From a virus (Duplodnaviria; Heunggongvirae; Uroviricota; Caudoviricetes), in IMG/VR virus record IMGVR_UViG_2663763286_000004, positions 1 through 11,464 of that record: a DNA stretch of 11,464 nt. The stretch is one strand, 5' to 3'. The notes beneath the pieces were generated by a model. That model saw only the letters and a list, made by a program, of their open reading frames with translations. It did not search any database and had not been told where the DNA came from. Position 1 is the first letter of the stretch. Each line of letters starts with the position of its first letter. Shown here piece by piece: positions 6,256 through 11,464 of this stretch. The position numbers were made by a program, and so were the translations under genes.

Positions 6256-7299
6256 GTGAAAGCCGTAATTACTCCCTTTGTACAAAAAGAGCTTGGCGTC
6301 GCCACATTCAAAGTGGATCAGGAAGTCAGAAAGCTGGTGGAGGCTGGCCGTAAATTTATTATGGAGCCGGTGCCGCGTGAGTTAATCGAGCACATGGACG
6401 ACGGCCTCGTTGTTTCCGAGCAAACTATGGCAACAAATGAGGCGTTGCAGCCGTTTTTTAACAGCGATGAACTGTTTCGCCGTATTGGTGGAATTGACTC
6501 GCTGGTGGCGTGGTTGCGCAGGAAAGAGGGGCAATGCCAGGCCGCAGATCGTAGCTGGTGTGACAACCATATTGTCTACGCTGAACGAGACAATAGCGCG
6601 GTGTTGTTGTGCTGGCATCACGATAACCATTACCGGATGCGTGGTTTTAATGAGCTGAAAGAAACGCTGCATAATAATCGCGTTAACTGGATACTGGATG
6701 TCGCCCGTCAGGAAATGGGGCTTTCAGATGGCCATGATTTAAGTATTCAGGAACTGTGCTGGTGGGCTTTCATGCGCAACATGATGCACCTGATGCCGGA
6801 AGAAGTTTGCCGTATATCAATAAATAAGATGAAAGCCGCAACGCAGGATAGCGGACCTCTGAAAGAGGCGGATATTCGCCCGTATGACGATCGCGCTACA
6901 GCATATGTTCAGATGATGGAAGAACGCGCCGCGCCGATGCGTGCAAAAGTATGCCCTGTGGATGTTGACTCCGACCCTGGCATGGCGCATTTCAAAATAC
7001 CAAAACTGCAATCGCTAAAATTACCTGAGTACATGGACTTTGTTGCTTCCCGTCCATGCTGTGGGTGTGGAGCGGCGGGAGCTGGCGCTCACATTACGCC
7101 TTATATCGTTCGTCATAGTCGATTATGCGCGCATGACATTTACGCAATTCCTCTGTGCCAGTCATGCCAGCGTGATATTGAGCGTGACCGCGATAATTGG
7201 GAGAAGACGCACGGCAGGCTGGCGATGCATCAACGATTGTTCTTTGATTACGCGCTTGGAGTCGGCGCTATCACAAGTCACTCGTCGAGCGTTAGATAA
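6256..7299 (+). CDS. Post-doc region protein (347 aa), Cys/His-rich with possible zinc-binding C-terminal motif
   Basis: GTG start with AAAGGTG upstream; C-terminal CCGCG ... [28 protein letters not shown] cluster; synteny with P1 pdc gene between doc and lpa. Confidence 0.55.
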
Positions 7300-7300
7300 A

Positions 7301-7317
7301 ATTGCTCTAATGTATTG
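7301..7317 (+). promoter_or_regulatory. C1-repressor-type operator overlapping the -35 of the lpa promoter
   Basis: ATTGCTCTAATGTATTG matches the P1 C1 operator consensus ATTGCTCTAATAAATTT at 14/17; putative promoter TTGCTA(7315-7320)-N16-TATTAT(7337-7342). Confidence 0.55.
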
Positions 7318-7387: not shown

Positions 7388-7840
7388 ATGTTACTTAACT
7401 GGCAGGGACGCCACTTCATGGAAATAAATCACTCACGAATTACATCGTATGAGATTGCGGATTACATGATCCGCACTAAATCTCTTCTATCAGCGAAAGA
7501 ACTCGCAGCAATCCTTGAAAAGGAATACCCGCATCTGGATGTCGATAAGCGCGATGTTTATCTGCGCTTAAAGGCTATCGCTGTGTCTAAGTATTCGTCT
7601 GTTTTGATTGATGACAGTACACGCCCACGTAGATTTCAGATCCACTCTCTGAATCCTGAATTCTTTCGCCGTAGCCGCGCTCCGCGCCGGTTTGATGAAA
7701 AACTCCAGAACGAACTCTATATGACGCAGGACGAAAAGGAACGCCGGGAGCACCAGCCTTGGGTAATGGCGCGTCAACTTTTCAATAAGGTGGCCCGTCA
7801 GCACCGTCATTACGGTAATGCCACATCCGCACGTATCTGA
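7388..7840 (+). CDS. lpa: Lpa, late promoter activator (150 aa; alternative start ATG 7418)
   Basis: Position between the pdc genes and pacA, C1-operator-controlled promoter upstream and small basic protein, all as in P1; sequence not independently verified. Confidence 0.7.
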   Translation: MLLNWQGRHFMEINHSRITSYEIADYMIRTKSLLSAKELAAILEKEYPHLDVDKRDVYLRLKAIAVSKYSSVLIDDSTRPRRFQIHSLNPEFFRRSRAPRRFDEKLQNELYMTQDEKERREHQPWVMARQLFNKVARQHRHYGNATSARI

Positions 7841-7925: not shown

Positions 7926-9119
7926 GTGACCTGGGACGATCACAAGAAGAATTTTGCTCGCCTGGCGCGAGATGGTGGTTACACCATCGCACAGTATGCC
8001 GCCGAGTTTAATCTTAACCCTAATACTGCACGTCGTTATCTCCGTGCCTTCAAAGAAGACACCAGGACAGCGGACAGCCGCAAGCCAAATAAGCCAGTCA
8101 GGAAGCCACTAAAAAGCATGATCATTGATCACTCTAATGATCAACATGCAGGTGATCACATTGCGGCTGAAATAGCGGAAAAACAAAGGGTTAATGCCGT
8201 TGTCAGTGCCGCAGTCGAGAATGCGAAGCGCCAAAATAAGCGCATAAATGATCGTTCTGATGATCATGACGTGATCACCCGCGCCCACCGGACCTTACGT
8301 GATCGCCTGGAACGCGACACCCTGGATGATGATGGTGAACGCTTTGAATTCGAAGCTGGCGATTACCTGATAGATAACGTTGAAGCGCGGAAGGCCGCGC
8401 GCGCTATGTTGCGTCGGTCCGGGGCCGATGTTCTGGAAACCACTATTCTGGAAAAGTCTCTTTCTCATCTCCTTATGCTGGAGAACGCCAGGGATACGTG
8501 TATTCGTCTGGTGCAGGAAATGCGCGATCAGCAAAAAGACGATGATGAAGGGACTCCGCCTGAATATCGTATCGCGAGCATGCTAAACAGCTGTTCCGCG
8601 CAGATAAGCAGCCTGATCAACACCATTTACAGCATCCGGAATAACTATCGAAAAGAAAGCCGGGAGGCGGAAAAGCACGCTTTATCTATGGGGCAAGCTG
8701 GCATTGTTAAGCTGGCATACGAACGAAAGCGTGAAAATAACTGGTCAGTGCTGGAAGCAGCTGAATTCATCGAGGCGCATGGCGGAAAAGTGCCGCCCCT
8801 GATGCTGGAGCAAATCAAAGCCGATCTGCGTGCTCCTAAGACCAATACCGATGATGAGGAAAGGCAAACAGCCGTCGGTGGCCCTTCTCTTGAAGATCTG
8901 GACAAAGTTGCGCGAGAACGGGCCGCCAACCGCCGCGCCGATGCCGCATTGTGGATTGAGCAGCGTAGGGAAGAAATCGCCGATATCGTTGATACAGGCG
9001 GTTATGGAGATGTTGATACTGAAGGTGTATCAAACGACCCATGGCTGGAACAAGACCTGGACGAAGACGAGGAGGAAGACGAAGAAGTTACCCGCAAGCT
9101 ATACGGGGATGATGATTAA
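7926..9119 (+). CDS. pacA: PacA, small terminase/pac-recognition subunit (397 aa)
   Basis: GTG start with GAAGGGAAG RBS; contains the pac hexamer array within its coding sequence; acidic C-terminus (DEDEEEDEE); size matches P1 PacA. Confidence 0.9.
8119..8277 (+). other. pac packaging site: seven TGATCA/G hexamers (four at 8119-8158, three at 8249-8277), each carrying a Dam GATC site, flanking a central cleavage region
   Basis: TGATCA at 8119, 8126, 8138, 8153; TGATCG at 8249; TGATCA at 8261, 8272. Span 159 bp, the 4+3 arrangement described for the P1 pac site. Confidence 0.85.
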
Positions 9120-10612
9120 TGGCCAGAAGTTGCGTAACGGATCCACGTTGGCGCGAGCTGGGGGCGCTATATCGTTATGACTGGATTGCTGCCGCTGATG
9201 TTTTGTTCGGCAAAACACCTACCTGGCAGCAGGATCTGATTATTGAGTCTGTGCAGGAACAGGGTAGCAAGACATCTGTTTCGTCTGGTCACGGTACCGG
9301 GAAATCAGACATGACTTCTATCATGATCATGTTGTTCATAATCATGTATCCCGGTGCCCGCGCCATTATCGTTGCGAACAAAATTCAGCAGGTAATGACC
9401 GGTATATTCAAGTACATCAAGATAAACTGGGCTACTGCCACCAGCCGTTTTCCATGGCTTGCTGATTATTTTGTTCTGACAGAAACCGCTTTCTATGAGG
9501 TTACTGGTAAAGGTGTATGGACTGTAGTACCGAAGGGCTTTCGTCTGGGAAGTGAAGAAGCTCTCGCCGGTGAACACGCAGATCATCTTCTGTATATTAT
9601 CGATGAAGCCTCCGGTTTCAGTGATAGAGCTTTCGGTATCATCACTGGTGCTCTTACCGGACAGGATAACCGCATCTTATTACTGTCACAGCCTACACGC
9701 CCAAGCGGCTATTTCTACGATACTCACCATAAACTGGCCAAGCGTCCTGGTAACCCTGATGGCGTTTATACGGCGATCACGCTTAACAGTGAGGAATCAC
9801 CGCTGGTAACGCCAGCATTTATCAAAATGAAGCTGGCGGAGTACGGCGGGCGTGATAACCCTATGTACATGATTAAGGTACGCGGACTATTCCCTAAATC
9901 ACAGGATGGCTTCCTTCTTGGACGTGATGAGGTTGAACGTGCGACGCGGCGGAAAGTCAAGATTGCCAAAGGATGGGGCTGGCTTGCATGTGTGGACGTT
10001 GCTGGTGGTACGGGACGGGATAAGTCCGTTATCAATATCATGATGGTGTCCGGCCAGAGAAATAAACGCCGTGTAATCAACTATCGAATGCTGGAATACA
10101 CAGACGTTACAGAAACGCAGCTTGCCGCCAAAATTTTCGCAGAATGTAATCCTGAGCGATTCCCAAATATCACCATAGCGATAGACGGCGATGGGCTGGG
10201 TAAAGCAACGGCGGATCTGATGTACGAGTATTATGGTATTACCGTACAGCGTATACGCTGGGGTAAAAAGATGCATAGCCGTGAAGATAAGAGCCTGTAC
10301 TTTGATAAGCGTGCTTATGCCAACGTTCAAGCCGCAGAGGCCGTAAAATCTGGTCGTATGAGACTGGATAAGGGTAATGAAACTATTGAGGAAGCGTCGA
10401 AAATCCCTGTAGGGATTAACTCCGCAGGTCAATGGAAGGTGATGAGTAAGGAGGATATGAAGAAAAAACTCAACCTGCACTCACCAGACCATTGGGATAC
10501 ATATTGTTTCGCTATGCTGGCGGATTATGTTCCCCAGGATGAAGTGCTTAGCGTCGAAGACGAAGCGCAGGTTGATGAAGCTCTGGCATGGCTTAATGAA
10601 TGTTTGCTCTAA
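9119..10612 (+). CDS. pacB: PacB, large terminase subunit (497 aa)
   Basis: Walker A SGHGTGKS and Walker B-like [10 protein letters not shown]; 1-nt overlap with pacA stop (TAATG). Confidence 0.9.
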
Positions 10613-10750
10613 TAAATTGTGTTTTTTAATTACCGATGTTACATTGAACCTGACCTCTTGCGCCTTGAGGCATTTTCGGTTTATGCTTATCAGGCACCTC
10701 ATTAAAACGGGTGCCGGGATTGGCCTCCCGCTTAAGTCTAAGGCGATACA

Positions 10751-10772
10751 GACGCCGCTCGCGTCTTTTTTT
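10751..10772 (+). terminator. Intrinsic terminator-like hairpin GACGC-CGCTC-GCGTC followed by T7
   Basis: 5-6 bp GC-rich stem and seven consecutive T; lies 140 nt after pacB stop and just upstream of the c4-like RNA. Confidence 0.45.
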
Positions 10773-10800
10773 GTATCGGCGTACACGCACACCTCTACAA

Positions 10801-10880
10801 TGGTGGGCTGTATGGGGCTACCTTCGGGTAGGCTGGTTACCTTGGACGCCAGTAAGGCCAACTCCGTACAGTCCACCGCC
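10801..10880 (+). ncRNA. c4: c4-like antisense repressor RNA (immI type), tRNA-like fold
   Basis: 11-bp closing stem 10802-10812/10867-10877, internal hairpin CTACC-TTCG-GGTAG and CTGG/CCAG stem; loop CCUUGGACG and downstream AGGCCAA are complementary to two sites in the flanking sequence, one covering the icd SD. Exact ends uncertain. Confidence 0.6.
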
Positions 10881-10937
10881 AGCAAGATTGGTCTCTTCTG
10901 CGGTGGTTACATACCAACGTCTAAGGAGGCTGCCAAT

Positions 10938-11159
10938 ATGGCTACTATCCCTACCCCAACTCATCCTGAATTTATCTGGCGCTTTTACTCCTGCCAAAAA
11001 CGTCACTATCACTTCGTTATTGCACCGACAGAAGATGAGGCCCGCTCTCAGCTTCCTGACGCCCCATGTATTTTCTCTGCTCGCTTTTCTACCGATTTGC
11101 GCAATTCTCTCAGTTACTGGAGCCTCCCTGTTAACGCTTCTGCTCAGGAGGGGTTATGA
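10938..11159 (+). CDS. icd: Icd-like host cell division inhibitor (73 aa)
   Basis: Strong SD TAAGGAGG 8 nt upstream; MATIPTPTHPEFIW... resembles Icd-like proteins as recalled; stop overlaps ant start (ATGA), as in the P1 icd-ant arrangement. Confidence 0.55.
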   Translation: MATIPTPTHPEFIWRFYSCQKRHYHFVIAPTEDEARSQLPDAPCIFSARFSTDLRNSLSYWSLPVNASAQEGL

Positions 11160-11464
11160 GAACGTCATTAGTCACCCGTGAAGAGATGATCGAGGCAATT
11201 GAACAGCACACTGCCTGTATCAGTACCAGGGATATACCGGGCGTTATTGCCAACTACTTCATGATCACCAAACAACTTTACCGGAGAAAGGACAAGAACG
11301 CGGTTCACCGTATCCTGTTGTCTGATATCCGCGAATACCTGCTCGAACAGGGTCATCTGAATTACGCAACCGTCGCAGCCGAAGCACGCAAGGAGGCACA
11401 CAGAATGAAAGCAACTAACGTTAAATCAGAAAAAATTCATGCACCTTCAGTTCAGGAATCGGAG
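11156..11464 (+). CDS. ant: Antirepressor Ant (Ant1-type), 5' part only, running off the window; internal in-frame start at 11405 with its own strong SD (Ant2-type)
   Basis: SD AGGAGG before ATG 11156; open frame to the window end (103 codons); second SD AAGGAGG 8 nt before in-frame ATG 11405, matching the nested ant1/ant2 organisation of P1 immI. No sequence identity verified. Confidence 0.5.
   Translation, partial: MRTSLVTREEMIEAIEQHTACISTRDIPGVIANYFMITKQLYRRKDKNAVHRILLSDIREYLLEQGHLNYATVAAEARKEAHRMKATNVKSEKIHAPSVQESE

Follow-up and report, generated by a model that had tools for sequence, protein, structure and literature searches.

The stretch of DNA analyzed here, which we call the window, comprises 11,464 nucleotides (nt) of the IMG/VR virus record IMGVR_UViG_2663763286_000004. 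It belongs to a P1-like (Punavirus) phage-plasmid, and phd/doc, pdcA, pdcB, lpa, pacA and pacB follow one another in it. Our subject is its last part, positions 10603–11464, where a C1-operator-like site, an isrK-type leader RNA, a c4-type antisense RNA, an icd homologue and the 5' part of an ant1-like gene lie in a row on the plus strand, beginning at the very end of pacB. The original prediction had placed c4-, icd- and ant-like elements after pacB, and all three are present at about the distances it gave.

The c4-type antisense RNA (10796–10883) is a full-length match to the Rfam model RF01695 at 75.9 bits, compared to a gathering score of 45, and starts 184 nt past the pacB stop (10612). 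Its fold, at –41.6 kcal/mol (z = –3.35), resembles that of P1 c4, and judging from the ends annotated for P1 c4 the mature RNA probably spans ~10802–10877. The loop of the second hairpin carries b' CCTTGGAC (10840–10847), and a' AGGCCAA (10855–10861) lies just 3' of that hairpin. Both are complementary to two target sites downstream on the icd-ant mRNA, a2 TTGGTCT (10888–10894) and b2 GTCTAAGG (10919–10926), the latter overlapping the icd Shine-Dalgarno sequence AAGGAGG (10923–10929), and likewise to two sites upstream, a1 and b1, inside the leader. This leader (10694–10771) matches the Rfam isrK model RF01394 at 60.8 bits (gathering score 50), where the second hairpin has a1 TTGGCCT (10720–10726) in its loop, and b1 GTCTAAGG (10736–10743) occupies the linker ahead of an intrinsic terminator (stem 10750–10766 followed by a T-run) that was found by an independent terminator scan. 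At a relaxed threshold the Rfam c4-a1b1 model picks out the same two leader hairpins with a sub-threshold 20.5 bits. Since the isrK and c4-a1b1 models share these hairpins, we regard the isrK-type element as an a1/b1 leader equipped with an intrinsic terminator. The spacings are close to those of P1, with 31 nt in the window vs 29 nt in P1 between a2 and b2, and 19 vs 18 nt between b2 and the icd ATG.

The icd homologue (10938–11159, plus strand) encodes 73 amino acids, which is the P1 length, and its product is 79% identical (52/66) to P1 Icd. It starts with MATIP, like a protein of the Shiga toxin (Stx) phage P13374; P1 Icd starts with MVNAN. The icd stop and the ant start overlap in an ATGA at 11156–11159, as in P1 icd/ant1, and by analogy icd may serve as a leader cistron to which ant is translationally coupled. 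The ant1-like gene runs on the plus strand from 11156 to the window end at 11464, so that 103 Ant residues fall within the window; these align with the N-terminal part of P1 Ant1. Met84 (11405), the internal start of Ant2, is conserved with P1 and is preceded by a Shine-Dalgarno sequence AAGGAGG at 11390–11396, in the same AAGGAGG-N8-ATG context. In relatives whose DNA is 94–99% identical, the full-length Ant of 372 amino acids combines an ORF6N domain with an ANT/KilAC domain (PF03374, 1e-31) and is 56% identical to P1 Ant1 overall. Visual reading of the alignment indicates that the C-terminal KilAC domain is nearly identical to that of P1 Ant1; the ORF6N domain, absent from P1 Ant1, replaces its middle.

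The left edge of this region is formed by the C1-operator-like site TTTGCTCTAATAAATTG (10603–10619, plus strand), which agrees with the consensus ATTGCTCTAATAAATTT in 15 of 17 positions and is the equivalent of P1 Oc4/Op51. The site and the ~60 nt that follow it can be aligned to Oc4 of P1 together with the promoter region there, and sequence comparison did not find the site in the pacB-c1 spacer of either P1 or SJ46. Two matches to the consensus occur in the window, compared to 0.05 expected by chance. The second one (ATTGCTCTAATGTATTG, 14/17) lies at 7301–7317 in the pdcB-lpa interval, which is the position of P1 Olpa/Op94. Two plus-strand promoters are predicted behind the left edge. TTGTGT-17-TACATT (10617–10645), overlapped by the operator-like site, would be the positional equivalent of P1 P2c4/P51a according to the alignment to the P1 leader. 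TTGCGC-18-TATGCT (10658–10687), suggested by homology, would serve the isrK-type leader with a start near 10694; the same position is occupied by TTGACT-17-TATATT in P13374 and by TTGACA-17-TATATT in Gifsy-1. A candidate promoter for c4 itself (TTGTAT-19-TACAAT, at the c4 5' end) was rejected, given an overlong spacer and a start that would sit inside the c4 stem, and the minus-strand open reading frames (ORFs) 10481–10885 and 10818–11012 overlie the RNA genes and are unsupported as genes.

In the annotated P1 genome (NC_005856) a convergent c1 lies 24 bp past the pacB stop, followed by coi, imcB, imcA and lox, and the series Oc4-P51a/b-a1-b1-c4-a2-b2-icd-ant1/ant2-kilA-repL is found ~43 kb from pacB. 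The P1 map given in the original prediction, with c4-icd-ant away from the pacB-c1-coi-imcB/imcA-lox region, agrees with this annotation, and the adjacency of pacB and c4-icd-ant is absent from reference P1. SJ46 has the P1 arrangement too, with c1 24 bp after pacB; its pacB is 98.8% identical to that of the window. Among phage records, the region 9000–11464 is matched as a whole in BLAST only by vB_EcoM-673R5 (98.7%), RCS47 (95%) and JL22 (94.5%); for P1, P7, SJ46, phiW39 and 813R1 the match ends at the end of pacB. In RCS47, JL22, 673R5 and pUTAK-11-1, pacB is followed by a cassette of ~1.7 kb with a 371–372-aa antirepressor gene, and then by c1 on the opposite strand and coi. Next come cra and cre in 673R5 and pUTAK-11-1, and in RCS47 the interval from imcA to lox is occupied by insertion sequence elements and dms genes. 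The search for c1 and coi downstream that had been proposed for the window was thus made in its relatives, where c1-coi(-cre) directly follow the cassette. The expectation that a C1-type repressor is encoded outside the window is likewise borne out there: in all full-length relatives c1 starts ~35 nt past the ant stop, ~1.15 kb beyond the equivalent of base 11464.

Both edges of the cassette can be placed by sequence comparison. On the left, P1 and SJ46 read AATGAATAA and then, across the junction, CTCATT, and the RCS47 class reads AATGAATGA and then ATATTTGCTCTAATAAATTG; the left junction of the window sits directly at the pacB stop, as in the RCS47-type arrangement. At the right edge, the ant stop and then a hairpin GCCCGGTTGATGCCGGGC run up to the c1 stop codon. 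This right junction is present in 4 of the 4 full-length relatives examined and for the window falls past its end. The cassette takes the place of the 24-bp pacB-c1 spacer only and leaves immC intact. Its map position, from pacB to c1 (the latter as seen in relatives), is not the canonical position from sim to kilA-repL, which makes it a paralogue at a second site and not the immI locus itself. We conclude that positions 10603–11464 are very probably the first ~860 bp of a self-contained anti-immunity cassette of ~1.7 kb, an immI paralogue that comes in addition to immC. This judgement applies to the whole reading, meaning both the extra cassette and its C4/leader/Ant mechanism, in the RCS47-type half of the P1-like phage-plasmids. 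The rearranged immunity architecture that had been considered for the element thus stands in the form of one added cassette; in the sense of immI having moved, or immC having been replaced, it does not.

Additional copies in related elements support the assignment as a paralogue. pUTAK-11-1, the closest of the complete relatives, carries a C4 gene at two places. One lies behind pacB and is identical to that of the window; the other has an a1b1-type leader and adjoins genes for an Ant of 347 amino acids, KilA and RepL, and so represents the canonical immI, with c4 loops TCACAATC and CTGCTAA that correspond to the P7-type specificity. Because pUTAK-11-1 keeps the canonical immI as well, the cassette behind pacB is an additional paralogue. 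In each of two species-representative Escherichia genomes an Icd copy of ~96% occurs together with one of ~79%, and the 89.6-kb P1-like plasmid NZ_CP058684.1 contains three c4-icd-ant cassettes, each with an a/b specificity of its own, c4 being located at ~37266 (minus strand), ~65690 (plus) and ~77003 (minus). The three occupy the canonical kilA/repL site (with an isrK-type leader), a lyz-pro site between lysozyme and head-processing genes (with an a1b1-type leader) and the pacB-c1 site (window type).

Both pacB-c1 architectures are common. A probe for the window junction found at least 271 complete PLSDB plasmids at ≥80% coverage, and a probe for the uninterrupted SJ46/P1-type junction found 316 PLSDB plasmids; each probe matched 703 PLSDB records at any coverage. 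The window junction also occurs in four phage records, representing three distinct phages (RCS47 is present twice, as FO818745 and NC_042128), and recurs in more than 55 IMG/VR contigs. The cassette may have been inserted in one lineage or deleted in the other. Both pacB allele groups (~92% and ~100% protein identity) co-occur with the cassette, which indicates that the polymorphism moves by recombination.

We then examined sequence variation of the cassette in 80 loci retrieved from IMG/VR on the basis of Icd; an earlier Icd search of genome contigs had given six loci, whose diversity was too low for covariation. Short-word BLAST with the window and P1 c4 missed variant cassettes, which were found by reading upstream of icd. 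More than 55 of the IMG/VR loci have PacB upstream, and an ORF6N/KilAC Ant and C1 downstream. The leaders of these pacB-c1 cassettes fall into five specificity types, A to E. Type A, that of the window, has a1 TTGGCCT, a2 TTGGTCT and a' AGGCCAA, together with b GTCTAAGG and b' CCTTGGAC. Types B and C have a TTGAGAC (a' GTCTCAA), and types D and E a TTGGAAC (a' GTTCCAA). The b site is GTCAAAGG (b' CCTTTGAC) in types B and E, and GCAAAAGG (b' CCTTTTGC) in types C and D. In every type a1, a' and a2 covary, and so do b1, b' and b2. Across 25 distinct aligned cassette sequences, standard base pairs are found in 375 of 375 cells, for leader-c4 and c4-mRNA pairing alike, and 7 of the 15 pairs show changes on both sides. 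The observed covariation score was reached by none of 500 shuffles, and sliding the partner by 1–3 columns brings pairing down to 25–56%. Cognate duplexes of b' have energies of –9.4 to –11.5 kcal/mol, compared to –1.4 to –8.5 kcal/mol for non-cognate ones.

In the IMG/VR loci leader type and ant type assort independently. An isrK-type leader can precede a P1-type Ant1 and KilA at the canonical site, and an a1b1-type leader can precede an ORF6N-type Ant (L053, L093 and L095 vs L080–L085, L087, L090 and L094). Among the canonical a1b1-type c4 genes, b' and a' occur in at least seven combinations, which goes beyond the classical pair of P1 and P7.

The closest known systems are the RCS47-type elements (RCS47, JL22, vB_EcoM-673R5, pTZ20_1P and pUTAK-11-1), which have the same cassette at the same junction with 94.5–98.7% nucleotide identity over pacB-icd-ant; the window differs from them in lacking 4 bp at the pacB stop, a deletion of its own. 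The cassette resembles P1/P7 immI in the order and near-equal spacings of its parts, an upstream C1 operator or operator-like site, the c4 fold with its placement of b' and a', the position of b2 over the icd ribosome-binding site, the 73-aa Icd, the ATGA overlap and the nested ant1/ant2 starts. It differs in lying at pacB-c1 and not at sim-kilA/repL, in its isrK-type leader with a terminator of its own, in the ORF6N middle of Ant (as seen in relatives) and in its a'/b' sequences, which are AGGCCAA/CCTTGGAC in the window, CTGTCAA/TCACTAAC in P1 and CTGCTAA/TCACAATC in the P7 type. The leader region has another relative in the Stx phages P13374, TL-2011c and phi191. Here window 10695–10940 finds a counterpart with ~79% nucleotide identity upstream of a gene for a Rha-family regulator/antirepressor, with the same a1/b1-c4-a2/b2 layout and the same first five codons, MATIP. 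In contrast to the window, the Stx-phage leader feeds the Rha-family gene directly, without icd and in a lambdoid context, and the specificity of P13374 differs again (a TTGCTAC, b AATCAAGG). From its sequence the cassette thus looks chimeric, with an operator region of P1 type, an isrK-c4 leader of lambdoid type, and icd and ant again of P1 type.

The nearest relative that has been characterized is the isrK-'orf45'(STnc1160)-anrP locus of Gifsy-1 in Salmonella, where a promoter, isrK with a1/b1, a terminator, a c4-type RNA and a2/b2 over the ribosome-binding site of the antirepressor follow each other as in the window. Rfam searches of Gifsy-1 (NC_010392, minus strand, 34100–34330) give isrK at 34240–34316, C4 at 34131–34214 (69 bits) and c4-a1b1, all upstream of anrP, and on the same hairpins the hits of the isrK and c4-a1b1 models overlap, both of them above threshold. 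Gifsy-1 has no icd; its upstream cistron is a 45-codon frame through c4 itself, 'orf45', which runs from an ATGG at the c4 5' end to the ATGA of anrP and coincides with the C4 gene and the a2/b2 leader. It differs further in an antirepressor from an unrelated context, which turns on antQ, in the lack of a C1 operator and in other a/b sequences. Read-through of the isrK terminator and processing to a ~80-nt RNA have been shown in Gifsy-1 (Hershko-Shalev et al. 2016, PMC4825925), as has the activation of antQ expression by AnrP (PMC4825925). In the same study IsrK supplied in trans raised downstream translation more than 100-fold; for IsrK-type RNAs, such action in trans and Hfq binding are shown for Gifsy-1 only (PMC4825925). 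By position and size, this processed 'orf45'/STnc1160 species is most likely the c4 homologue. By our own count, the compensatory pairs G28–C162 and G31–C159 of that study (PMC4825925) join a1 (TTGGCGT) to a' (ACGCCAA). The Gifsy-1 authors likened IsrK to P4 seqA and STnc1160 to P4 CI RNA (Hershko-Shalev et al. 2016). The family link between IsrK and c4-type systems is therefore not new, and what we add is only the explicit mapping onto a1/a' of P1. A 2025 review still treats IsrK and c4 in separate entries.

The comparisons above establish the anatomy of the cassette, its homologies and insertion site, and the complementarity with its covariation, and from these we infer, by analogy with P1 immI and Gifsy-1, how promoter use, c4 processing, translational repression, a leader decoy, binding of Ant to C1 and an effect on superinfection may fit together. 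Transcription would begin at one or both promoters just downstream of the C1 operator. Part of the transcripts would end at the isrK-type terminator, giving a short leader RNA with a1 and b1, and read-through transcripts would carry c4, a2/b2, icd and ant, with c4 being cut from this precursor. Pairing of b' and a' in c4 with b2 and a2 would then mask the icd ribosome-binding site. No antirepressor would be made in an established lysogen, because translation of ant would be coupled to that of icd through the ATGA overlap. The a1/b1 sites of the leader, either in cis or on the short RNA, may compete for c4 and so favor ant, as IsrK does in Gifsy-1. Once made, Ant1/Ant2 would antagonize C1. A resident c4 of another type should not silence the ant gene of the window, since the a/b sequences match neither P1, nor P7, nor the other variants.

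Several results weigh against parts of this reading and determine how it should be argued. The structure used to score covariation was taken from the window sequence, and five types amount to few independent events. Duplex energies discriminate poorly for a', the window a' reaching –8.8 kcal/mol on the P1 leader vs –8.3 kcal/mol on its own; because the energies separate b' but not a', we argue orthogonality from exact complementarity together with covariation. A strict sigma-70 consensus scan of 10400–11464 gave no plus-strand promoter, which is why both promoters are presented as predictions by homology. The isrK-type fold is no more stable than shuffled sequence (z = –1.0), and with its stability being unremarkable the leader is supported by the covariance model and the target-site covariation. 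The view is limited to 11.4 kb, and a downstream c1 or canonical immI of the same replicon would lie outside it. Finally, Ant has an ORF6N middle unlike that of P1 Ant1, and its targets may include more than C1, or not include C1 at all.

This last point leads to an alternative in which Ant acts on the repressors of other prophages or on the host instead of on P1 C1, and the cassette is a lambdoid import that happens to stand beside c1. It would account for the central ORF6N that P1 Ant1 lacks and for the ~79% identity of leader and c4, MATIP codons included, to the Rha/antirepressor leader of Stx phages, and Gifsy-1 AnrP, under the same RNA architecture, activates antQ (PMC4825925). However, the N-terminal ~85 residues and the KilAC C-terminus are P1 Ant1-like, the latter nearly identical, the internal ant2 start is retained, a C1-operator-like site precedes the cassette, and c1 lies alongside in hundreds of elements; we consider a target other than C1 unlikely. 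The limited view also bears on whether a single immI might have been relocated from sim/kilA-repL to pacB-c1, leaving this as the sole c4-icd-ant copy, all the more as Venturini et al. (PMC6906374) report P1-like plasmids with lost or modified canonical immI. Relocation is hard to reconcile with both copies being present in pUTAK-11-1, with the paired ~96% and ~79% Icd copies in two genomes and with three cassettes in one plasmid, and the leader and c4 of the cassette are of the lambdoid isrK type, not a P1-type a1b1 leader that has moved. It is therefore improbable.

It is more improbable still that the cassette is a non-functional remnant, a decaying duplicate without a role. Frameshifts in ant and c1 of 673R5 and an IMG/VR contig without leader and c4 (L068) point in that direction, but all elements in the window are intact, almost every locus has icd and ant at full length, and the three-way complementarity is 100% across variants, with compensatory changes. 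Since pacA too is split in the damaged 673R5 record, sequencing errors are likely there; pacA is intact in the window, and ant and c1 are intact in pUTAK-11-1. An assembly chimera joining pacB to an immI from elsewhere is refuted, as complete phage and plasmid records of independent origin share the identical junction, and metagenomic viral contigs have it as well. As for the two records with defects, pacA, ant and c1 of vB_EcoM-673R5 (7929–9120, 11159–11932 and 12335–13158) are each split or truncated by frameshifts. In L068 (IMGVR_UViG_2609459791_000005, 1340–1503) an internal part of pacB runs directly into the icd ribosome-binding site, without operator, leader or c4; this variant, if real, would express icd-ant without antisense control, and an artefact of short-contig assembly is also possible.

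An insertion of ant between pacB and c1 was noted in one sentence, naming RCS47, by Venturini et al. 2019 (PMC6906374); this description and the annotations of the records give only 'ant' and 'two short hypothetical orfs'. The JL22 paper, which compares 77 P1-like plasmids, makes no mention of pacB, icd or antirepressor, and operator, leader RNA and c4 are annotated in none of the public records examined. In JL22 the ORF annotated as the 'hypothetical protein' gp120 (5601–5807 of locus L004) lies between pacB and icd, over leader and c4, and gp121 is icd. In NZ_CP058684.1 a coding sequence for an 'ash family protein' (37179–37298) contains the c4 at ~37266. The arrangement and the kind of system are thus already known; this analysis adds the RNA anatomy, the c4 specificities and the multi-cassette pattern, and no new category.

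The heteroimmunity of P1 and P7 is based on two c4 specificities. With at least five a/b specificities at pacB-c1, more at the canonical and lyz-pro sites and up to three cassettes per plasmid, it is possible, although we hold this with somewhat less than even confidence, that P1-like phage-plasmids carry interchangeable and mutually orthogonal c4/ant cassettes whose diversification is driven by an arms race over immunity. Selection for heteroimmunity would be in keeping with the variety of specificities and with elements that contain two or three cassettes. If this is true, the extra cassette of a superinfecting element would express an antirepressor immune to the resident c4, the cassette would shield its own lysogen against relatives with the same cassette, and the isrK-type leader, as a decoy for c4 within the cassette, would set the point of switching. 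Reference P1 represents one of two common architectures, the other having an extra antirepressor cassette in at least 271 of the 703 probe-matching PLSDB plasmids. With many more c4 specificities combined per element, superinfection immunity may be far more finely partitioned than between P1 and P7, in phage-plasmids that spread resistance genes.

The remaining parts of the window concern the neighboring genes. The terminase large subunit gene pacB (9119–10612, plus strand), placed from the ORF list and from nucleotide identity to relatives, is 98.8% identical to that of SJ46/phiW39 and 81.7% to that of P1 at the nucleotide level. Compared to RCS47, JL22, 673R5 and pUTAK-11-1, AATA is missing within 10596–10612. 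This 4-bp deletion removes the usual TGA stop, so that PacB of the window has three added C-terminal residues, CLL (..WLNECLL*), and the frame is closed by a TAA within the C1-operator-like site. The deletion is private to the window, being found in none of ~80 related loci, 38 of which have the standard sequence. Upstream lie pdcB (6256–7299), lpa (7388–7840) and pacA (7926–9119, 397 amino acids). Positions 1–5400 match relatives in pieces only, the best plasmids covering 83–88%, and are rich in short ORFs that elsewhere are annotated as ead/Ea22-like, DUF551 and hypothetical proteins.

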